Positions 11,146 to 63,992 of a stretch of DNA of 63,992 nt are shown here, in pieces. The stretch is from an uncultured Thermoanaerobaculia bacterium (lineage in GTDB: Bacteria; Acidobacteriota; Thermoanaerobaculia; Thermoanaerobaculales; Sulfomarinibacteraceae). Position 1 is the stretch's first letter, and every line of letters starts with the position of its first letter. The stretch is taken from NCBI GenBank assembly GCA_964641295.1, contig CAZXNA010000003.1:1-63992 (forward strand). Direction: 5' to 3'. The translations under genes and the position numbers were made by a program. The notes under the pieces were generated by a model. It ran no database searches and was not told the origin of the DNA. It worked only from the letters and a program-made list of their open reading frames with translations.

Positions 11146-12408
11146 TCAGTCTGTGTCTCGGAATATGTGCTGTAGCATGGCCGAGGGCGGCATCAGCCGG
11201 GGTTGGCCGAAGACCTCCGCGGGCAGGTCGCGGGCCAGGTGGAGGGCCCGGTGAGTGATGTAGGCGAAGTTGTCGCGCACCCTCATGGCGCCGCGGCTGC
11301 TGTACATCCGGTTGAGCACCTCGAGCTGGGCCGTGAAGGGATCCGATCCGGCGAGGCCGGCAAGGACGTCTCGATCCTCGCCGGCTTGGGGAGCCGCGAA
11401 ATCTTCGGTCGTGGGGAGTCCCAGAAGTGAGGCCTCGAGCCGTTCCAGCTCGTTGAGCACGGGGTTCACGGCGCGCTTCGTGGCGGTGCTGTGGCCATCC
11501 AGAAGGATGGGGCGCCGACGGCAATTGGCCCGGTGGATCTCTGGATCATGCACAATCCATCCGAGGTTCGTGATGTGGAGCCGGCGGGAGACGCCGCTGT
11601 GGAGCTGGGCGATGAAGGGCTTGACGGCCGTTTCCCATGACTCCTCGATCCCGTTGAACATGTTGAGGATGAAGTAGACGCCAAAGCTGTGGATGACCTC
11701 CCGGATGGGACGAAGATAGGGGTTGTCTCCCAGGGCCTGCTCGAGGTCGACGAGAAAGGCATCAAGGTTGGGGAGCTCCTCCACGTAGACGTCCTCCACC
11801 TGATCGAGGAGTTCGTTGACCAGGCGGTGCTGCTGGATTCCGCCGGGCTGGCGAAAGAGCGGGGACTCCCGGGAGAAGACGATCCTCAGCTTGCGGAAGA
11901 GGAGACTGCGGACGATATCGGCCGCGGCCAGCGTGGCGGCCGGGTGTTGGGGCGTGAAGATCAGGATGCCGGAGTTGGACAGGGGAAGATAATCGATGAC
12001 GTGTCCGTCGAGCCCGGCGCGGAGATCCAGCACGATGAAGCTGGCCGGCAGCTCGTTGAGGGCCGCCATGAGACGCCACCGAGCGTTCTGGGACATGGAG
12101 CTGATCTCCTCGATGGCGTGGCGTGGAGCGGCTATGAAGCCGAAGTTGGCGTAGAGACCGTTGGGGTCCATCCGTCCATCAAGCCCCGTGATGCACTCCT
12201 CGAGACGGGCTCCCCGCCGGAAGTAGTGGTAAAGGTCCTTCTCGACCTTGAGATCCAGGGTGCTCCGGACGGAGGAGGTGCCCGTATCCAGATCAACGAG
12301 GATGGTCGGTGCGACCCGGGACAGGGCCAGGGCAAAGTTGATGGCGAAGGTGGTCTTCCCAACGCCTCCCTTGCCCGAGGCCACGCTGATGATCCGCCGG
12401 ACCATCAT
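11146..12408 (-). CDS. MinD/ParA-family P-loop ATPase with a C-terminal extension beyond the core NTPase fold
   Basis: Internal ATG 12408 of ORF 11146..12756. Deviant Walker A SGKGGVGKTT. ATGA overlap with the udk stop. 420 aa. Confidence 0.75.
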   Translation of the reverse strand: MMVRRIISVASGKGGVGKTTFAINFALALSRVAPTILVDLDTGTSSVRSTLDLKVEKDLYHYFRRGARLEECITGLDGRMDPNGLYANFGFIAAPRHAIEEISSMSQNARWRLMAALNELPASFIVLDLRAGLDGHVIDYLPLSNSGILIFTPQHPAATLAAADIVRSLLFRKLRIVFSRESPLFRQPGGIQQHRLVNELLDQVEDVYVEELPNLDAFLVDLEQALGDNPYLRPIREVIHSFGVYFILNMFNGIEESWETAVKPFIAQLHSGVSRRLHITNLGWIVHDPEIHRANCRRRPILLDGHSTATKRAVNPVLNELERLEASLLGLPTTEDFAAPQAGEDRDVLAGLAGSDPFTAQLEVLNRMYSSRGAMRVRDNFAYITHRALHLARDLPAEVFGQPRLMPPSAMLQHIFRDTD

Positions 12409-13049
12409 GGAGCTCCGGTGACCTCGGGGCGGCCCTCTCCGAGGTCCTGAAGAACCCGGCTGACCACGAGATCGAGGGCCACGGAGTTGTACCCCCCCTC
12501 CGGAATGATGATGTGAGCCCATCGCTTGGAGGGCTCCACGAATTCCAGGTGCATGGGCCGTACCGTGGTGGTGTACTGCTCGATGACGCCCTCGACCGTT
12601 CGCGAGCGTTCTCTCATGTCCCGGAGCAGACGCCGGATGAACCTGATGTCGGGATCGGTATCGACGAAGATCCGGATGTCCATCAGGCGGCGGAGTTCGG
12701 GTTCCGCCAGCACGAGGATTCCCTCCACGAGAATGACGGGGCGGGGTTCCATCCACTCGATCTCGTCACGGCGGACGTGCCGTGAGAAGTCGTACACGGG
12801 GAGCGGCGCCGGTTGACCGGCCCGAAGCAGCTGGAGGTGTTCCACCATCAGGGTCGTTTCCAGGGCTGCCGGATGGTCGAAATTGTGGCGGAGCAGCTCG
12901 TGGTGCTGCTGGGCCGAGAGATCGTGGTAATAGCGGTCGTGGTTGACGACGGCCACCCGTTCGGTACCGACGCGCCGGGCGATCTCCCGCGCCACGGTCG
13001 TCTTTCCCGACCCCGTTCCTCCCGCGACGCCCAGGACCAGCGGTGTCAT
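12405..13049 (-). CDS. udk: Uridine kinase
   Basis: GVAGGTGSGKTTVA P-loop, FDHPAA, ILVEGIL, RDxxERGR-like RDMRERSRT. Confidence 0.9.
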   Translation of the reverse strand: MTPLVLGVAGGTGSGKTTVAREIARRVGTERVAVVNHDRYYHDLSAQQHHELLRHNFDHPAALETTLMVEHLQLLRAGQPAPLPVYDFSRHVRRDEIEWMEPRPVILVEGILVLAEPELRRLMDIRIFVDTDPDIRFIRRLLRDMRERSRTVEGVIEQYTTTVRPMHLEFVEPSKRWAHIIIPEGGYNSVALDLVVSRVLQDLGEGRPEVTGAP

Positions 13050-17420: not shown

Positions 17421-17437
17421 TTGGCACGAGTTCTGCA
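17421..17437 (+). promoter_or_regulatory. Sigma-54 (-24/-12) promoter
   Basis: TTGGCACGAGTTCTGCA versus consensus YTGGCACGrNNNTTGCW. GG and GC are at the correct 12-nt register, with only T->C at the first -12 position. It lies 29 nt upstream of ATG 17466, and GGGAGG SD sits between. Confidence 0.55.
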
Positions 17438-17465
17438 CTCACTCTGGGGGAAACGGGAGGTTGCC

Positions 17466-18404
17466 ATGCTTCGCAAGACAATGACGATCCTTATTCTCCT
17501 CGCGGCGGCGAGCGGTGCGGCCTGGGCCCAGCTGTCCCCGGCCTGGATGATACCCGCCGCTGCCCACGTCAACGGGGTCGGTGACAGCTTCTGGACGACC
17601 GACGTGGCGATCCACAACCCGCACCAGTTCCAGCTGCCCGTGGTCGTGCAGTTCCTGGCCAGCAACCGGGAGAACTTCTCGGTTCCCACCTTGGAGCTGA
17701 CCCTGGACCCGTGGGAAACGGTCAACCTCTGGGACGTGCTCGGGCCCGATCTCTTCGCCTGGAACGGGACCGGCGCCCTCCTGGTCTACGCCGACGTGGA
17801 CGTACTGGACTGCTCCGTTCCCGAGGAATGCTACCTGCTGACCACCTCTCGAACCTACACCCTCGATCCATTCACCTGGGCCGGAGAGTACGCCCAGGCC
17901 ATGCCGGGTGTGCCCGTCTCCCAGGGGCTCGACGCGTCGACCCTTGGCTATGTCAGCGGCATCATGAACGACGGGGATGAGTTCCGGGCCAACGCGGGCG
18001 TCGCCTCGTGGACGCCGGAATGGACCACGGTCCAGATGGACGTGCAAGACTCCCGAGGGAACATCCTGCGGACCGAGGTGTTCCAGGTGCCTCCCTTCGG
18101 TCACATCCAACGCCGGATCGCCACGCCCGTCACCGGCGGTACCGTGGTCTTCTACCTGGTCGACCCACCGGCCGATGCCCTGGTCTTCCCCTACGCCACC
18201 ATCGTCAACAACGTCACCAACGATCCGACGTTCCTCCCCACCTTTGTTTCTGTCGTCGGTGTCAGTGTCCAGGAGTTGAAGCGCGGAGGGTTTTCTCTCC
18301 CCCAGACGCCCGAGGTCCAGGGTGTTCCCCGTCAGCTGGAGCGGTCGCTTCTCGAACAGCTGAAACGGCGCCCGAACCCCCGTCAGGAGGTTTCGCCGGA
18401 ATGA
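17466..18404 (+). CDS. Secreted hypothetical protein (paralogue of 57974..59164)
   Basis: Internal ATG 17466. Signal peptide MLRKTMTILILLAAASGAAWA. IPAAAHVNGVGDSFWTTDVAIHNP motif is shared with the second copy. Confidence 0.65.
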   Translation: MLRKTMTILILLAAASGAAWAQLSPAWMIPAAAHVNGVGDSFWTTDVAIHNPHQFQLPVVVQFLASNRENFSVPTLELTLDPWETVNLWDVLGPDLFAWNGTGALLVYADVDVLDCSVPEECYLLTTSRTYTLDPFTWAGEYAQAMPGVPVSQGLDASTLGYVSGIMNDGDEFRANAGVASWTPEWTTVQMDVQDSRGNILRTEVFQVPPFGHIQRRIATPVTGGTVVFYLVDPPADALVFPYATIVNNVTNDPTFLPTFVSVVGVSVQELKRGGFSLPQTPEVQGVPRQLERSLLEQLKRRPNPRQEVSPE

Positions 18405-18732
18405 CCCGCATTGTTATCCGTCCCCTGCAGGGCGGGGTGTGGCTCGGCTCTCGGCGTCTTCTCCACTCGCTCGCTCAACGTTCCTCGAGCGCGCCTCCGC
18501 TCCCTCATCTTCCGGGAGCTCCGAGATCCGCGCCACCTCCCACCCTTCGCGACCATATCCGGTGAACCATGGGGGATGACGGCCTCCTCCCGTTTCCGCG
18601 GGCCGGTCCCCCGGTGGACCGGCCCCGTCCATTTCATTGAAGGACTGGACACCACCGGGATGAACCGGGCTACAATGGGGCAGCTTGTACTGAGAGGCTC
18701 CCGGTGTAGGTTGTGTCTCCGCAGGAGGGACG

Positions 18733-20907
18733 ATGGTCCAATTCGACAACCAGTATCGCCAAGTCAAGGTCAAGATCGTCTACTACGGCCCCGCCATGGG
18801 CGGCAAGACCACCTGTCTCCAACATATCCACGGCGTTACGGATCCCCAGCACCGCACCCGGCTCTACTCCCTCAACACGGCCAACGACAGGACCTTGTTC
18901 TTCGATCTCATGTCCCTCGATCTGGGTCGAATCCGGGGTTACCGCCTGGCCCTTCAGCTGTACACCGTCCCCGGCCAGGTCCAGTACAACGCGACGCGTC
19001 GGGCCGTGCTTTCCGGGGCCGACGGCGTCGTCTTCGTCGCCGACTCCCAGGAGAACCAGCGCGAGCCCAATCGGGAGTCCCTGGCCAACCTCTGGGAAAA
19101 CCTGGCGGCCAACGGTCTGGACCGGCAACGGATTCCCCTCGTGTTCCAGTACAACAAGAGGGATCTCTCCCCGCTCCTCTCCATCGAGCAGCTGGAGGCG
19201 GACCTCAACGACCGGCGGGTTCCCTCCTTCCCCACCATCGCGACCCGGGGACAGGGCGTCATGGAGGCCTTCCACGCCATCACCGAGGCCACACTCGTGG
19301 CGGTGGCCGACAAGCTGGGGATGGGTGGGAACCCCCAGGCCCTCGAGCAGATTCGCCAGAGGGTCCGCTCCGTCCTGGCTCCGTTCGAGCCCACAGAGGC
19401 CCGGACCGGAAGGCCCGGGGACGAGCTCGCCGTCGTCCGGTCCACGGCGGATCGTGGCGTCTCCCACCTGGGGAAGGACGCCCTGGTGCAGGAGGCCGTG
19501 CGAGCCAACGTCGCCATGACGGACCTCAACGTCCGCCTCGATGAGCTCAGCCGCCAGTTGGAGCGCAAGGCCGCCGTTCTCTCCGGGATTGCCCGCTTCG
19601 GCCAGGAAGTGACCTCCGAACGCGATCCGGAAGGCGTGCTCCGGAAGCTGATCGACACCGTGGTGGAACTCCTCGGCGCCTCGGCCGCCGCTGTCCTCGT
19701 GGTGCCCGGGTCCGGCCAGTTGCGCCTGGCCGTCGCCCACGGGATGGAAAGCGATCCTCTTCTGACCACCGCCGACGAGATCGGCGAGCCCCTGGCCCTG
19801 AACATCCTCGAGGGACGCCGGCCACAGATCTTCAGAGCGGAGACGGACGAAGGAGAAAATTCCCTGGCCGGCGAGGTCCTCGAGGCTGCGGGATTCAATT
19901 CCTGTCTGGCGGTGCCGCTGATCGCCGGTGACCGGGTCGCTGGGCTGCTGACCGTCTACGCGACCGGTGATCGGCTCCCCCTTGAGGAGGACGATCTGCA
20001 GCTGGCGACCGTGCTGGCCGCCTCGGGCGGAGTGGCCCATTCCAACGCCGTGGCATGGCAGCGTCTCGAGGAGCTCAACCGGGGGCTCGAAACCCAGGTG
20101 ACGGCACGAACGCAGGAGTTGCAGAAGGCGCTGAGCGAGGTTCAGGCCATGGCGGCCGATCTGGAGAAGAAGAACGAGCTGCTGGACAACGCCTACCGTG
20201 AGCTGGCCAAGCTCGATCATGTGAAGAACGAGCTGGTGACGCGGCTTTCCAGCGAGCTCAAGGAACCGGTTTCTGCCGTGTTGATGGCGACGCGTGTTCT
20301 CCGGGAGGCGCCGAGTCAGGATATCAACTCCAGGGCCCGCCTGATTGAGGTGGTCTTCAAGGAGGCGGACAAGCTCGGGGAGATCCTTGAGAACCTGCTT
20401 CAGACCTCAATCCTGACCGCCGCCCAGAGGCCCCCCGAGATCGAAAGTGTCCCCGTTCAGCGTTTCGTCAAGGAGGCCGTCGGGCCGCTGCGGGAGCTGG
20501 CCGATGACCGCGGTGTGGCCCTGCACATCAAGGTCGCCTCGGGGCTCGAGGTCCTCCGGTGCGAGCCCGAAACCGTCATGGCTGCCCTGAGGTCGGTGAT
20601 TCGCAACGCCATCCAGTTCAGGCCCTCCGGGTCCGACGTGGATGTGGAGCTCCGGCGCTTCCAGACGGAGAACGGTCCCTGGGTCGCCATTCGGGTGCGG
20701 GACCACGGGCCGGGGATCCCCGAGGACGAGCTGCCCCACGTGACCGAGGCCCTCTGGCGGGGGGCGGCAGCCGTTGCCGGTGAGCAGCGGGGAATCGGCC
20801 TTGGCCTGACCATCGCCGATCGCGTCATGGCCAGCCACGGAGGGAGACTGGCCATCGAGAGCCCCCCCGGCAAGGGTACGACCGTCACCTTGGCGTGGCC
20901 CCAGTAG
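18733..20907 (+). CDS. MglA-family small GTPase fused to GAF and a histidine-kinase-like DHp/HATPase core (H-box His replaced by Ser)
   Basis: aa 1-195: GPAMGGKT, NDRTLFFD, TVPGQ, NKRD, alignable to MglA at 62337..62921. aa ~295-445 are GAF-like. aa ~495-560 are DHp, KNELVTRLSSELKEPV. aa ~580-724 are CA: N box VIRNAIQF, G1 DHGPGIP, G2 GIGLGLTIA. Confidence 0.8.
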   Translation: MVQFDNQYRQVKVKIVYYGPAMGGKTTCLQHIHGVTDPQHRTRLYSLNTANDRTLFFDLMSLDLGRIRGYRLALQLYTVPGQVQYNATRRAVLSGADGVVFVADSQENQREPNRESLANLWENLAANGLDRQRIPLVFQYNKRDLSPLLSIEQLEADLNDRRVPSFPTIATRGQGVMEAFHAITEATLVAVADKLGMGGNPQALEQIRQRVRSVLAPFEPTEARTGRPGDELAVVRSTADRGVSHLGKDALVQEAVRANVAMTDLNVRLDELSRQLERKAAVLSGIARFGQEVTSERDPEGVLRKLIDTVVELLGASAAAVLVVPGSGQLRLAVAHGMESDPLLTTADEIGEPLALNILEGRRPQIFRAETDEGENSLAGEVLEAAGFNSCLAVPLIAGDRVAGLLTVYATGDRLPLEEDDLQLATVLAASGGVAHSNAVAWQRLEELNRGLETQVTARTQELQKALSEVQAMAADLEKKNELLDNAYRELAKLDHVKNELVTRLSSELKEPVSAVLMATRVLREAPSQDINSRARLIEVVFKEADKLGEILENLLQTSILTAAQRPPEIESVPVQRFVKEAVGPLRELADDRGVALHIKVASGLEVLRCEPETVMAALRSVIRNAIQFRPSGSDVDVELRRFQTENGPWVAIRVRDHGPGIPEDELPHVTEALWRGAAAVAGEQRGIGLGLTIADRVMASHGGRLAIESPPGKGTTVTLAWPQ

Positions 20908-59164: not shown

Positions 59165-59500
59165 GTTATCCCCCTTGTGTCGTTCGCTCCGGCTCTCCCG
59201 AAGCCGATCTCCATGTTGCACCTCAGTGTACGACGTTCCGCGGCCCGGAGGGTTGACCCCGGTCACTCCGCAGGCTCTCCGGCCCCCACGGAGATGGCAC
59301 CTGCTACTGATGGCGGTCCATCACCGTGGAAACGGGGACCCGGGCCGGCGGCGTCAGATCGTTTCCCGCTTCACTCGACGGCGAGTATACCCTCGACTGC
59401 GTCTGGGTTCCCGTTCCCCTGCCCGTTGCATGGCCGGCGAACGGTGGAGCACGCGGAGGGACGCCTGGCCTGCCGGGTCCGGCTGAGCTACCATGCCCGG

Positions 59501-61162
59501 GTGACATACCAGGTTCTCGCCCGCTCCTGGAGGCCCCAGCGCTTCGCCGACATCCTCGGCCAGGAGGCCGTGGTCCGAACGCTCCAGAACGCCCTGAAAA
59601 CGGGCACCCTGGGCCACGCCTACCTGTTCTCGGGGCTTCGCGGCGTCGGGAAGACGACGGCGGCCCGGCTTCTGGCCAAGGCGGTCAACTGCGAGAAGGG
59701 CCCGGCCCCGGAGCCCTGTGGGGAATGCGTCTCCTGCCGCGAGGTGACGGCGGGGGCCAGCCTGGACGTGGTCGAAATCGATGCCGCCACCCACACGGGC
59801 GTCGACAACGTGCGGGAGCTCCAGGAGCTCCTCCGCTACCGGCCGACCCGGGACCGCTACCGCGTGCTGATCGTCGACGAGGTCCACATGCTCTCCAAGT
59901 CGGCCTTCAACTCCCTGCTCAAGAGCCTGGAAGAGCCGCCGCCGTACATCCTGTGGATCTTCGCCACCACCGAGCGGCACAAGGTGCCCGCGACCATCCT
60001 TTCCCGTTGCCAGCAGCTGGAGTTCCGGCCCCTGGGGGTCGGCCAGATCGCTGCGCACCTGAACCACATCGCCGAGGCCGAGGGCTTCCAGCTGAGCGCA
60101 GGCGCCGCCGAGGCCGTGGCGCGGGCCGCCGACGGCAGTGTCCGAGACGGCCTCTCGCTCCTGGATCAGCTCCGGGCCTTCTCCGGGGACGCCATCGACG
60201 AGGAGGCCGTCGCCGCGGTCCTCGGCGTGCCCCGGGCCGAGCGGATCGTCCGGCTGGTGGGGCACCTGGCCCGCGGCGAGGCCGCCGAGGGTCTGGCAAT
60301 CGTCCGGGAGGAGCTGGCCTCGGGCCACGATCCCGTCGTCCTCTACGAGGAGGTCGGGCGGACCCTGCGGCGGATGACCCACCTGGCGCTGGATCCCGAG
60401 CTCGAGCCGGGGCCCCAGGGGGAGCTGCGGCGCCTGCTGGAGGATGCCGCCCGGGGCGTTGACGTGGCGGGGCTGACCCGCATGCTCGGCCTGTGGCTCG
60501 AGCAACAGGGGTTGATCCGCGAGGGGATCAACCGGGAGCTCGGCCTCGAGGTGGCCTGCCTCCGCCTCTCCCGCTGGCCCTCTATCCGTGCGGTGGAGGC
60601 CCTGTTGGCCGGGGAGACGCCTCCCTCCGTTCCAGGGCCTCCGGCCTCTGGCCAGCGGCGGGCCGGGGGAAGCGGCGGTGGCCAAAGGGGCCCATCGGCA
60701 GCAACGGAGGGTCTTCTCCCTGCCCCGCCGGCCGGGAACCATCAACCGGCGCCGCCCCGCATCGACGCGGTCGATCCCAGCCCCCATGCGCCGGGCTCTC
60801 CCGGCCAGATCCTCAGCGAGGCGTTGTGGCCCGTCCGGCCCCGCATCGCGGCGGCCATCGATGCCGCCGAAGTGAACCTGACCGACGGGGAGCTCCGGCT
60901 GAAGTTTCCCGCCGACGCGGCGGGCCTTGCCGATTTCCTCCGGGAGGAGGAGATCCGGGGCCAGGTGGCCGAGGCCGCCCGGCGCCATCTTGAGGGCTTC
61001 CAGGGGCTAAGCATTGCCGTGGAGGGTGAGACGGCCGGCGGGAACGGCGGGAGCCGGGCCCTCAGGGAGCTGGCCGAGAGCGACGAGGGCGTCGCCATGG
61101 CCCGGCGGATCCTCGGCGGCACCATCCGGTCGGTCGTGCCGGACGACGGGGGCGACAAGTGA
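59501..61162 (+). CDS. dnaX: DNA polymerase III subunits gamma/tau
   Basis: GTG 59501. YQVLARSWRPQRFADILGQ, GLRGVGKTT, Zn module CEKGPAPEPCGECVSC, VDEVHML, SRCQ. Confidence 0.9.
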   Translation: MTYQVLARSWRPQRFADILGQEAVVRTLQNALKTGTLGHAYLFSGLRGVGKTTAARLLAKAVNCEKGPAPEPCGECVSCREVTAGASLDVVEIDAATHTGVDNVRELQELLRYRPTRDRYRVLIVDEVHMLSKSAFNSLLKSLEEPPPYILWIFATTERHKVPATILSRCQQLEFRPLGVGQIAAHLNHIAEAEGFQLSAGAAEAVARAADGSVRDGLSLLDQLRAFSGDAIDEEAVAAVLGVPRAERIVRLVGHLARGEAAEGLAIVREELASGHDPVVLYEEVGRTLRRMTHLALDPELEPGPQGELRRLLEDAARGVDVAGLTRMLGLWLEQQGLIREGINRELGLEVACLRLSRWPSIRAVEALLAGETPPSVPGPPASGQRRAGGSGGGQRGPSAATEGLLPAPPAGNHQPAPPRIDAVDPSPHAPGSPGQILSEALWPVRPRIAAAIDAAEVNLTDGELRLKFPADAAGLADFLREEEIRGQVAEAARRHLEGFQGLSIAVEGETAGGNGGSRALRELAESDEGVAMARRILGGTIRSVVPDDGGDK

Positions 61163-61761
61163 AGGAGCTCCGACCCGCGGCGGTCCGCGAGGTGCTCGCC
61201 CACCTGGAACGGCTCCCGGGGGTCGGCCCGCGCTCGGCCCAGCGGCTGGTGGAGCATCTCCTGACCTGCCCGCCCGACGAGCCCGTACGGCTTGGTGAGG
61301 CGCTGACGGCCCTGAGAGACCGTATCCGCCTTTGCTCCAGATGTTTCCTGCTGACGGAGGAGGACCCCTGTCCCGTCTGCTCGGATCCGGGGCGCGACCG
61401 CTCCATCATCCTGGTGGTGGAGTCGCCGACGACGGCCTGGTCCGTGGAGGCGACCGGTGAGTACAACGGCCTGTACCACGCCCTGCTGGGCCACCTCTCG
61501 CCCCTCCATGGCGTCGGTCCCGAAGATCTGAGAATCGAGGAGCTGCTCGACCGCGTGAAGGGCGGAGAGGTGCGGGAGGTCATCCTGGCCACGAACCCCA
61601 CCGTGGAGGGTGAGACAACGGCCCTCTACATCGCCCGGCGGCTCGAGCCCCTGGGTGTGGACATCAGTCAGCCGGCGTCGGGCATACCCGTCGGGGGCGA
61701 GGTGGGGGCCGTCGACCAGGTGACCCTGGCCCAGGCGCTCCAACTCCGCAGGCGGGTGTGA
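61159..61761 (+). CDS. recR: Recombination protein RecR
   Basis: LPGVGPRSAQRL HhH, CSRCF..C.VC zinc finger, Toprim ILVVESP...ATNPTVEGETTA. Confidence 0.95.
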   Translation: MKELRPAAVREVLAHLERLPGVGPRSAQRLVEHLLTCPPDEPVRLGEALTALRDRIRLCSRCFLLTEEDPCPVCSDPGRDRSIILVVESPTTAWSVEATGEYNGLYHALLGHLSPLHGVGPEDLRIEELLDRVKGGEVREVILATNPTVEGETTALYIARRLEPLGVDISQPASGIPVGGEVGAVDQVTLAQALQLRRRV

Positions 61762-61851
61762 GACATGCCACCTCCCGGAGGAACCCTTTCCCTTGCTCCC
61801 GGGATACAATTGTGTTAGAACGAGTTGGATGGAAGTGGGGAGGCTGCCGCT

Positions 61852-62340
61852 GTGGACTCCGGATTGGTGATGTATGAAGAAGAGTTCAACAAGATCAGTG
61901 CGGTCCTCAATCGCCTGAGGGTTGACGCCAGCGCCAAGATCGTGTTTCTCATCGACAAGAACGGTCAGCAGATCGCCGCTGCCGGTGAGATCGAGTATGT
62001 GGACACGACCTCCCTGGCCTCCCTGACCGCTGGCAACGTTGCCGCCACCGATGGGCTGGCCAAGCTGATCGGCGAGAAGGAGTTCTCCATCCTCTTCCAC
62101 GAGGGGAAGAAGGACAACATTCACATCTCCATCGTCGGGCAGCGCCTGATCCTCGTGGTCATCTTCGACGAGCGTTCCTCCCTGGGGCTCGTCCGGCTCC
62201 GGGTCCGCAAGGCGGCGGCCGAGCTGGAGCGCATCCTGGGTGAGATGGAGCAAAAGGCCCTCGAGGTCGGCGCAGAGGAGGCCGCTTCGCCCTTTGCCGA
62301 GATCACAGACGAAGATATCGACGCCCTGTTTTCAGAATGA
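61852..62340 (+). CDS. mglB: Roadblock/LC7 protein MglB (MglA GAP)
   Basis: [17 protein letters not shown]...[13 protein letters not shown]...[13 protein letters not shown], acidic tail. GTG 61852 has GGAGG 8 nt upstream (alternatives TTG 61825, ATG 61870). Overlaps the mglA start. Confidence 0.8.
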
Positions 62341-62921
62341 GCTTCATCAATTACGCCGCCCGTGAGATCAACGTCAAGATCGTCTACTACGGCCCTGGTC
62401 TCTGCGGGAAAACCACCAACCTCCAGTACATCTACGAGCGGTCCAACCCCCAGCAGAAAGGGAAGCTGATCTCCCTGGCCACGGAGACGGACCGCACCCT
62501 GTTCTTCGACTTCCTCCCCCTGGACCTGGGCTCGGTCCGCGGGTTCAAGACGCGCTTCCACCTGTACACGGTCCCGGGCCAGGTCTTCTACGACGCCAGC
62601 CGGAAGCTGATCCTCAAGGGCGTGGACGGCATCATCTTCGTGGCGGATTCCCAGGAGGTTCGCGAGGACGCCAACCTCGAGTCCCTCCATAACCTGGAAA
62701 TCAACCTCAAGGAAAACGGCTTCGACCTCAAGACCATCCCCTACGCACTTCAGCTCAACAAGCGCGACCTCCCGACGGCCATGCCCGTTGATCACATGTA
62801 CCGGCAGCTCAACTTCAAGGGGGAGCCGACCTTCGAGGCCATCGCCACCCAGGGGATGGGCGTCTTCGAGACCCTCAAGGCCGTCGCCAAACAGGTCCTC
62901 TACGAGCTTCGCCGCAAGTAG
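62337..62921 (+). CDS. mglA: Ras-like GTPase MglA
   Basis: [55 protein letters not shown]; 194 aa. Confidence 0.9.
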
Positions 62922-62923
62922 CC

Positions 62924-63992
<1,069 letters not shown>

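Follow-up and report, generated by a model that had tools for sequence, protein, structure and literature searches.

A family of Acidobacteriota proteins joins an MglA-type GTPase domain to a GAF and histidine-kinase body, with a predicted pseudokinase in the copy described here

An uncultured Thermoanaerobaculia bacterium of the Acidobacteriota (assembly GCA_964641295.1) carries, on a 63,992-nt stretch of contig CAZXNA010000003.1 that was analysed as a whole (the window), a gene in which an MglA-type GTPase domain, a GAF domain and a histidine-kinase body are encoded as one protein of 724 amino acids (aa). The protein combines known kinds of module in one chain: a GTPase of the MglA family, and a kinase or pseudokinase of the two-component type. 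It is one member of a populated family for which we found no published characterization. The reading that we favour, at a probability of roughly 45%, is that the window protein is a GTP-switch-gated signalling protein whose kinase body is now an ATP-binding pseudokinase scaffold.

The gene is a single continuous open reading frame (ORF) on the forward strand (18733..20907) with an ATG start, preceded by a strong ribosome-binding site; promoter and terminator scans around it gave nothing above shuffled expectation. Searches against Pfam returned Arf (aa 12-185, E = 8e-6), GAF (aa 296-435) and HATPase_c (aa 613-723, E = 1.5e-22), and a HisKA match at aa 498-560 scored 26.1 bits, just under the Pfam cut-off of 26.9 bits. 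An AlphaFold2 (AF2) monomer model with a mean predicted local distance difference test score (pLDDT) of 77 places the G domain at residues 1-197, a helix at 201-218, a disordered stretch at 220-247 (pLDDT 30-46) and a long helix at 248-294. These are followed by the GAF domain at 299-411, a continuous helix at 419-525, the second helix of the DHp domain at 531-563 and the CA domain at 571-723. Foldseek comparison with the PDB matched the head to MglA (template modelling (TM) score 0.85-0.88) and the tail to HK853 and DivL (TM about 0.73). The helix at 248-294 is probably a dimerizing coiled coil and, by analogy with other DHp-containing kinases, the protein would be a dimer through this coiled coil and the DHp. 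The fusion protein is soluble and has no predicted membrane segment. The GAF ligand could not be inferred by homology, the nearest PDB sequence (2vzw) being a marginal match (E = 0.003). A preliminary description of this ORF, made from the DNA letters, had proposed an uninterrupted 724-aa frame, an MglA head carrying GPAMGGKT, DRTLFFD, TVPGQ and NKRD that aligns end to end with a canonical MglA of the same window, a GAF-like domain, a coiled coil, a DHp helix and a CA domain with N, G1 and G2 boxes. Translation confirms the frame and the four motifs, and Pfam and the AF2 model bear out the GAF domain, the coiled coil and the CA domain; for the DHp helix and the histidine-kinase core the fold stood, in the AF2 model and by Foldseek, whereas the phospho-acceptor did not.

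The architecture is not a one-off. Homologues were collected as at least 120 clusters at the 90% identity level, from a search of 5.8 billion proteins, and as a species-level set of the best 80 of 326 matching stretches, with one genome per GTDB species. The clusters cover 96-100% of the query at 50-79% identity and are about 725 aa long. The best 80 of the 326 stretches all span residues 1 to 721-724 and come almost all from Thermoanaerobaculia, Thermoanaerobaculales, Thermoanaerobaculaceae, Ca. Sulfomarinibacteraceae or unclassified Acidobacteriota metagenome-assembled genomes (MAGs), the closest among them being an Acidobacteriota MAG at 79% identity. Names on the few labelled clusters are 'GAF domain-containing protein', 'ATP-binding protein', 'signal transduction histidine kinase/signal recognition particle receptor subunit beta' and, once, 'MglA'. 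Conserved in the family alignment are the N-terminus MVQFDNQ and the linker motifs ADKLGxGxNPQA and LVxEAVRANxAMTDLNxRLD; indels of up to about 25 aa fall in the tether between head and long helix. A frameshift, missed stop or misassembly in 19300..19650 was considered and rejected, since the same continuous ORF and linker motifs recur in at least 120 clusters and in 80 genomes. The fusion is thus one gene, as first described.

The head of the fusion is of the type of MglA Group 1, a group defined by an intrinsic arginine finger and the TVPGQ motif (PMC4316618). More specifically, it aligns with the window's own canonical MglA (62337..62921) at 48% identity over 186 aa without gaps (BLASTP, E = 2e-60), in line with the alignment first reported. 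Compared with small-GTPase models, it gives the Pfam Arf match above, and M. xanthus MglA in the PDB is matched by phmmer at E = 4e-54, again gap-free and with identical numbering, R53 and Q82 coinciding. The G1-G4 motifs are present, TVPGQ has its Gln and R53 stands by the G2 Thr; absent are two other traits of the group, the single-domain size of 150-240 aa and an mglB within four genes, which most members have. Each of the residues G19, K25, T26, R53, T54, P80, G81, Q82, N141, K142 and D144 is found in 119-120 of the 120 clusters. In MglA, a hydrophobic patch on beta2 (L55, F56, F57, F59) is exposed in the GTP form and contacts MglB (PMC3199381). The fusion has L55, F56, F57 and L59 there, invariant across the family alignment, and L59 is one of the switch-region substitutions specific to the fusion family, with LYSLNTA and QVQYNATRR. 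Conservation is by far highest in the G domain, with a mean identity of 70-74% against 34-60% for linker, GAF, DHp and CA. Judging from its residues, this domain is fully equipped, as MglA is, to bind GTP and to hydrolyse it with an Arg finger and a Gln of its own.

The kinase body of the window copy lacks its phospho-acceptor. The H-box of the window protein reads LVTRLSSELKEPVS (20233-20274), with S507 at the position of the phospho-His, and the +4 residue of the HExxT/N motif is Glu (S-E-L-K-E-P); the H-box of His-bearing relatives reads HELKTP or HELNTP. Thus, of the HisKA-class features, the phospho-acceptor His and the HE/DxxT/N motif are missing from the window protein and the N, G1 and G2 boxes are present. 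With S507 and a Glu for the HExxT Thr, the window copy is therefore without both residues that a HisKA-type enzyme uses, the one for kinase and the one for phosphatase activity, and by this reading of its residues it cannot act as a canonical kinase or phosphatase. Among 120 clusters, position 507 is L in 71, H in 26 and S in eight, the remainder showing one of G, A, R, E, T, K, N and D; among the closest relatives, those with at least 74% identity to the window protein, the residues are S, S, R, G and G. The position is thus unconstrained. An acidic residue beside the former His is retained in 116 of the 120 clusters, and the CA residues N625, D657, G659, G661, G687, G689 and G691 each in all 120, so that the CA domain is predicted to have everything needed for ATP-Mg binding. 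Closely related His-less pairs gave Nei-Gojobori ratios of nonsynonymous to synonymous substitution (dN/dS) of 0.06-0.22 for the DHp and 0.07-0.20 for the CA domain; His-bearing pairs gave 0.05-0.17. The low dN/dS in His-less DHp and CA domains indicates that the kinase body is kept by selection, still functional and not decaying. A histidine-kinase fold, no phospho-acceptor His and purifying selection are what is expected of a pseudo-histidine kinase, which is what the window's kinase body, with its intact ATP pocket, is predicted to be.

These data also bear on the view that only the G domain matters, the kinase half being a relic in decay or the fusion an artefact of assembly or annotation. 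The sub-threshold HisKA match and the missing His would fit a relic. The dN/dS of 0.06-0.22 in the DHp and CA of His-less pairs and the 100% conservation of the ATP-binding residues would not, and an artefact is hard to square with at least 120 clusters and 80 species-level genomes, drawn from many independent assemblies, in which the ORF is uninterrupted and equally long. We give this view almost no weight; it is refuted as far as sequence evidence can refute it.

The loss of the His is accompanied by a change of gene neighbourhood. Across the class, the region is syntenic, with Pro_dh, a ComF-like gene, YjbQ, two small unknown genes and a gene for a protein of about 300 aa (UP) leading up to the fusion. 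In the window, the order continues from UP through the fusion to an epimerase gene (-), a gene with a PATAN/DUF4388 domain (-), RimK and ferritin (-). In L072, a typical His-bearing locus, UP is followed by a REC-HisKA-HATPase gene (384 aa), the fusion, a GAF-SpoIIE/PP2C phosphatase gene (505 aa), a stand-alone REC gene (143 aa) and RimK; here the end of the REC-histidine-kinase gene overlaps the start of the fusion gene, and the start of the PP2C gene overlaps the fusion's stop. Neighbours were counted at the 66 species-level loci with enough flanking DNA, scoring REC within 2.5 kb and PATAN within 3.5 kb. A REC gene was found at 28 of 31 His-bearing loci and at none of the 35 others (Fisher's exact p = 1e-15, uncorrected for shared ancestry), and PATAN at 7 of 31 and 30 of 35, respectively. 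A scan to 6 kb found no REC gene in the window or at any of 39 His-less species-level loci, and none of the His-less copies, the window fusion included, has a response-regulator or kinase gene within that distance. An orphan response regulator may be encoded elsewhere in the genome, outside the 64-kb window.

In the best 80 species-level genomes the H-box has His in 41 and another residue in 39. A neighbour-joining tree calls for at least four independent changes of the H-box, with His inferred at the midpoint root. A true histidine kinase appears to have been the starting point of the family. At loci L006, L011, L013 and L032, which look intermediate, the His is kept, the REC genes are gone and PATAN is present. 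The simplest history begins with an ancestral multi-component phosphorelay built around the MglA-GAF-kinase; a PATAN gene was then acquired beside the fusion, the partner genes were lost, and the His was lost with or after them.

Could the window protein still be an active kinase of some kind? One possibility is a canonical histidine kinase that uses another His, for example H496, and works with a response regulator from elsewhere in the genome. H496 shares its helix with S507, which it precedes by 11 residues or three helical turns, and orphan kinases with distant response regulators are common. In the family alignment, however, position 496 is variable (H, R, Q, E, G, K), for which reason H496 was rejected as phospho-acceptor, and the DHp has no invariant His at all, the only invariant histidines of the protein being H33 and H702. 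With the HExxT threonine also gone and REC neighbours at 0/35 His-less loci, we see only a very small chance for this possibility. Another is that the core is a GHKL Ser/Thr kinase of the RsbW, SpoIIAB or mitochondrial BCKDK type that acts on S507 or on a partner. The fully conserved ATP-binding motifs, the acidic residue retained in 116 of 120 clusters, the Ser at 507 in the window protein and the SpoIIE-family Ser/Thr phosphatase (PP2C) of the ancestral operons would all suit such an enzyme. S507 as a conserved acceptor was nevertheless rejected, given that the position is unconstrained among the 120 clusters (L in 71) and reads S, S, R, G, G in the relatives of at least 74% identity. The PP2C gene is absent from the His-less loci with listed genes, and the gene lists of the window and five loci, in which no STAS-specific search was made, hold no STAS/anti-sigma-antagonist gene. 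A Ser/Thr kinase thus has a small chance in our estimate. In itself, it is unusual for a PP2C phosphatase to be paired with an MglA domain and two histidine kinases.

Under the reading of a GTP-gated pseudokinase scaffold, the window protein would not signal by phosphotransfer. Like DivL, it would act as a scaffold or pseudokinase, here gated by nucleotide, and protein-protein interaction would be the output of the His-less copy. Its two tethered G domains would serve as nucleotide-dependent docking or gating modules, the L55-F56-F57-L59 patch on beta2 being exposed in the GTP form, and the GTP or GDP state of the MglA domain would set when, where and with whom the GAF-DHp-CA dimer engages its partners. 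The conformation of the core, in turn, would be tuned by the GAF ligand and by ATP in the CA domain. Candidate players in trans are the MglB at 61852..62340, as GTPase-activating protein (GAP) for the fusion, and, by gene context, the neighbouring PATAN protein as partner or effector. In the His-bearing relatives, autophosphorylation and the passing of phosphate to the neighbouring REC proteins would be under the control of the G-domain switch and the GAF ligand.

The main rival reverses the wiring: the GAF-DHp-CA part would be the sensor and the tethered MglA domain the output, as has been proposed for conservons. A change of the dimer upon GAF ligand or ATP binding would then control exchange, hydrolysis or accessibility at the G domain, which in its GTP form would bind motility or polarity effectors. 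The G domain is the most conserved part, as expected of an element that contacts conserved effectors, and purifying selection continues in copies that have lost the phosphotransfer output. There is also a precedent in the conservons, where an MglA-family GTPase functions downstream of the histidine-kinase-like CvnA and of CvnF, a GAF protein (PMC13343842; PMC4316618). On the other hand, the kinase core of the His-bearing relatives clearly has an output of its own in the adjacent REC proteins, and the N-terminal domains of histidine kinases are normally inputs. Moreover, no GEF-like (guanine-nucleotide exchange factor) or GAP-like element is recognizable in the core, and the disordered tether offers no obvious allosteric path. 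On balance we regard this reversed arrangement as somewhat unlikely.

Several points weigh against the GTP-gated scaffold itself. It is built on sequence and a structural model; the AF2 monomer has a predicted TM score (pTM) of 0.35, at which it is uninformative on contacts between G domain and core, and the direction of information flow between the two is undecidable from sequence. The association of His with REC amounts to at least four events, not 66 independent ones, and three to five His-bearing loci have no REC neighbour, which means that partner loss and His loss were not strictly simultaneous. The link to PATAN is one of gene order in a lineage in which the whole region is syntenic, and the two genes are convergent and hence not co-transcribed. 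Finally, PATAN as a roadblock-fold substitute for MglB was rejected, nothing roadblock- or longin-like being present in its model.

The closest known counterparts of the fusion protein at the head are the Group 1 MglA proteins of M. xanthus and T. thermophilus, with which it shares the gap-free G domain, the P-loop, R53, T54, TVPGQ with Q82, the NKxD motif and the beta2 patch. Those proteins stand alone at about 195 aa, usually beside mglB, whereas here the domain is the N-terminus of a 724-aa protein with no roadblock gene nearby. The rest follows HisKA-class kinases with GAF inputs in its order of coiled coil, GAF, signalling helix, DHp and CA and in its intact N, G1 and G2 boxes, the core being HK853-like in structure (TM about 0.73). 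The His-bearing family members have, in addition, the canonical H-box and adjacent REC partners. The window protein differs from this class in the Ser for His, the Glu for the HExxT Thr and the lack of a response-regulator neighbour. One of the best matches to the core, in structure and in sequence, is DivL (4q20). Under selection, DivL has kept the fold without a phospho-acceptor His, and it works by protein-protein interaction and not by phosphotransfer. It has Tyr at the His position, PAS inputs and DivK~P and CckA as partners; the fusion differs in its MglA domain, its GAF input and the variable residue at the His position.

Conservon (AGPS) systems bring together an MglA-family GTPase, a histidine-kinase-like protein and a GAF domain in one signalling system (PMC13343842; PMC4316618). 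Their parts are the kinase CvnA, the roadblock protein CvnB, CvnC, the MglA-family GTPase CvnD and an optional GAF protein CvnF (PMC13343842). In conservons, however, these are separate proteins of a four- or five-gene operon, with a membrane-bound CvnA and an obligatory roadblock protein and CvnC, and the systems are confined to Actinomycetota. The conservon GTPase belongs to Group 2, without the Arg finger, whereas the fusion is of the Group 1 type with R53 and comes from Acidobacteriota. Neither a roadblock nor a CvnC gene neighbours the fusion, which on all these counts differs from a conservon. ROCO proteins such as LRRK2 combine a Roc-COR tandem with a eukaryotic-type Ser/Thr kinase. The likeness to them is one of logic alone, a Ras-like G domain covalently joined to a kinase-type ATPase in a dimeric protein; homology ends at the P-loop GTPase fold, and Pfam found no COR or protein-kinase match in the fusion protein.

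The 2014 survey of prokaryotic Ras-like GTPases covered only proteins of 150-240 aa (Wuichet & Sogaard-Andersen, PMC4316618), and a 724-aa fusion would have fallen outside this size range. In the literature that we searched, which did not extend to many subscription papers, no description was found of an MglA-GAF-histidine-kinase protein, nor of a histidine kinase whose N-terminal module is a small-GTPase domain. The preliminary description had been unable to place the architecture in any described family. As to descriptions this holds; the family is populated, by at least 120 clusters, and, as far as we found, uncharacterized.

More distant members were sought with residues 1-300 in a profile-free search of 1.84 billion representatives. 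The MglA-GAF-DHp-CA architecture was found in about two dozen clusters at the 50% identity level, some only 39-45% identical and one labelled Planctomycetota, and the eight distant members that were inspected all have canonical SHELxTPLT H-boxes. Two loci of a distant lineage, L085 (P0140) and L086 (P0196), lie near dnaA-dnaN-gyrB and encode proteins with the H-box SHELLTPLT and a head identity of 39-48%; neither has an adjacent response-regulator or roadblock gene. Proteins with GAF and kinase domains form a group separate from canonical MglA and from MglA-like proteins with other tails when G domains are placed in a crude neighbour-joining tree. Such other tails are frequent: among the 150 best 50%-identity representatives from this query, about 94 are proteins of 290-800 aa with a complete Group-1-type MglA domain at the N-terminus (among P0143-P0269). 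Their long C-terminal tails have no Pfam family match, and the alignment consensus of these tails is little conserved beyond scattered prolines. Extended MglA domains thus seem much commoner in metagenomes than the stand-alone picture implies.

Coordinates of the fusion gene, its parts and the surrounding genes are collected in Table 1. The convergent PATAN gene belongs to an orthologue family of 84 clusters of about 459 aa in the same lineage, so far only on metagenome contigs, several of which also carry the fusion. The public gene call (442 aa) begins 19 codons inside the conserved N-terminus MIRGTLDRLHLGDFLQWLK, and the AF2 model (pLDDT 85, pTM 0.86) was made from this call, without the first 19 residues of the PATAN domain. 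In the model, a beta/alpha PATAN part at the N-terminus is followed by a large C-terminal domain made up wholly of helices. Compared with PDB folds, the model gave no match with E below 0.1, with a weak resemblance of the C-terminal domain to HDOD (TM about 0.4), and a sequence search of the PDB gave no match. PATAN genes have been tied to MglA/MglB earlier by genome context (PMC4316618; PMC11580455).

The canonical mglB-mglA pair of the window contains its only Roadblock gene, as first noted; it lies 41 kb from the fusion. The mglB product (61852..62340) is a Roadblock/LC7 protein by Pfam, its start being ambiguous between a TTG at 61825 and the position first given, 61852, and mglB and mglA overlap by 4 nt (ATGA). 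The pair is flanked by dnaX (59177..61162), recR (61159..61761) and a CofD/YvcK-like gene (62924..63886), and no RomR-, RomX- or Frz-like polarity-module gene was seen in this neighbourhood. The earlier statement that no second mglB adjoins the fusion also holds across the family: a single-seed hidden Markov model (HMM), of limited sensitivity, found no roadblock gene near the fusion in 85 loci.

Table 1. Location of the fusion gene, its domains and motifs, and neighbouring genes. Coordinates refer to the window, except for the operon of locus L072.
Feature	Position	Strand	Evidence
Whole gene, MglA-GAF-(pseudo)histidine-kinase fusion	18733..20907	+	Translation, Pfam, full-length homologues
Shine-Dalgarno AGGAGG, 4 nt 5' of ATG	18723..18728	+	Read from sequence
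MglA-type G domain with Group-1 hallmarks, aa 1-197	18733..19323	+	BLASTP, phmmer, Foldseek
P-loop GPAMGGKT, aa 19-26	18787..18810	+	G19 and K25 in 119/120 clusters (other row a gap), T26 in 120/120
Intrinsic arginine finger R53 and switch-I T54 (in DRTLFFD)	18889..18894	+	MglA-equivalent positions; 120/120 clusters
G3 motif TVPGQ, aa 78-82, with catalytic Q82	18964..18978	+	P80, G81, Q82 in 120/120 clusters
G4 motif NKRD, aa 141-144	19153..19164	+	119-120/120 clusters
Tether, aa 198-247: helix 201-218, then disordered 220-247, length-variable	19324..19473	+	AF2, alignment
Conserved long helix into GAF, aa 248-294	19474..19614	+	AF2 helix, conserved LVxEAVRANxAMTDLNxRLD
GAF domain, aa 296-435	19618..20037	+	Pfam GAF_2 2.9e-14, GAF 2e-13
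Signalling helix and DHp four-helix-bundle region, aa 436-563	20038..20421	+	AF2 helices, HisKA 26.1 bits
S507, degenerate phospho-acceptor position	20251..20253	+	Aligns with phospho-His of 8u4x kinase and HK853 H260
CA (HATPase_c) domain, aa 571-723	20443..20901	+	Pfam 1.5e-22; N625, D657-G659-G661, G687-G689-G691
UP gene, 327-aa protein, signal-peptide-like N-terminus (MLRKTMTILILLAAASGAAWAQ)	17421..18404	+	Conserved upstream
Convergent PATAN/DUF4388-domain gene, 461 aa	22203..23588	-	Pfam DUF4388 6.5e-17
Canonical mglB-mglA pair, 41 kb downstream of fusion	61852..62921	+	Robl_LC7 2e-14; MglA translation
Compact His-bearing operon REC-HisKA-HATPase / MglA-GAF-HK (histidine kinase) / GAF-SpoIIE / REC	L072 9572..14777	n.a.	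Also L047-L083

Upstream of the fusion, UP has no Pfam or NCBIfam match. At 61 of the 66 loci it comes directly before the fusion, or before the REC-histidine-kinase gene that precedes the fusion, and has the same strand; it was possibly the first gene of the ancestral operon. About 6 kb upstream of the fusion, a gene for a ParA/MinD-type P-loop ATPase (11146..12756, reverse strand) adjoins a uridine kinase gene. L001, the closest syntenic relative, has this gene too (called as 421 aa), but L003 lacks it at the corresponding place. ATPases of the ParA kind often act in positioning or polarity.

Bacterial polarity switches of the Ras-like kind have their model in MglA-type GTPases, which are treated as stand-alone proteins. 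The links of these GTPases to two-component signalling, through Frz and RomR in Myxococcus and through conservons in Actinobacteria, are indirect and poorly understood. The fusion offers a direct and testable coupling of an MglA domain to a GAF-histidine-kinase module, with one G domain per kinase subunit. A further-reaching proposal, which we hold to be unlikely, is that the MglA GTP switch directly gates a two-component kinase in the His-bearing members and that, in the His-less ones, the ATP-bound pseudokinase core has been re-used as an effector or regulator of the G domain. If this were so, the state of the G domain would be set by the cell's MglB and polarity machinery, in a bacterial histidine-kinase version of ROCO logic, and the His-less members would link polarity or motility control to a GAF-sensed metabolite without phosphotransfer. 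The family would then be a natural 'Rosetta stone' for an MglA switch gating a two-component kinase.

The family is also a clean natural experiment on the origin of pseudokinases. On at least four occasions the His disappeared, and on each of them the partner response-regulator genes went as well; the ATP-binding residues, the GTPase residues and purifying selection persist through these losses. For specialists the surprise may be moderate, and the family would give a concrete handle on the coupling of small GTPases to two-component systems and on how pseudokinases arise. Thermoanaerobaculia inhabit sediments, soils and hot springs and are known mostly from MAGs. The fusion is widespread in their available genomes and, because it recurs across so many of them, it may matter to their physiology. 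A cultured relative, of the genus Thermoanaerobaculum, could allow experiments.

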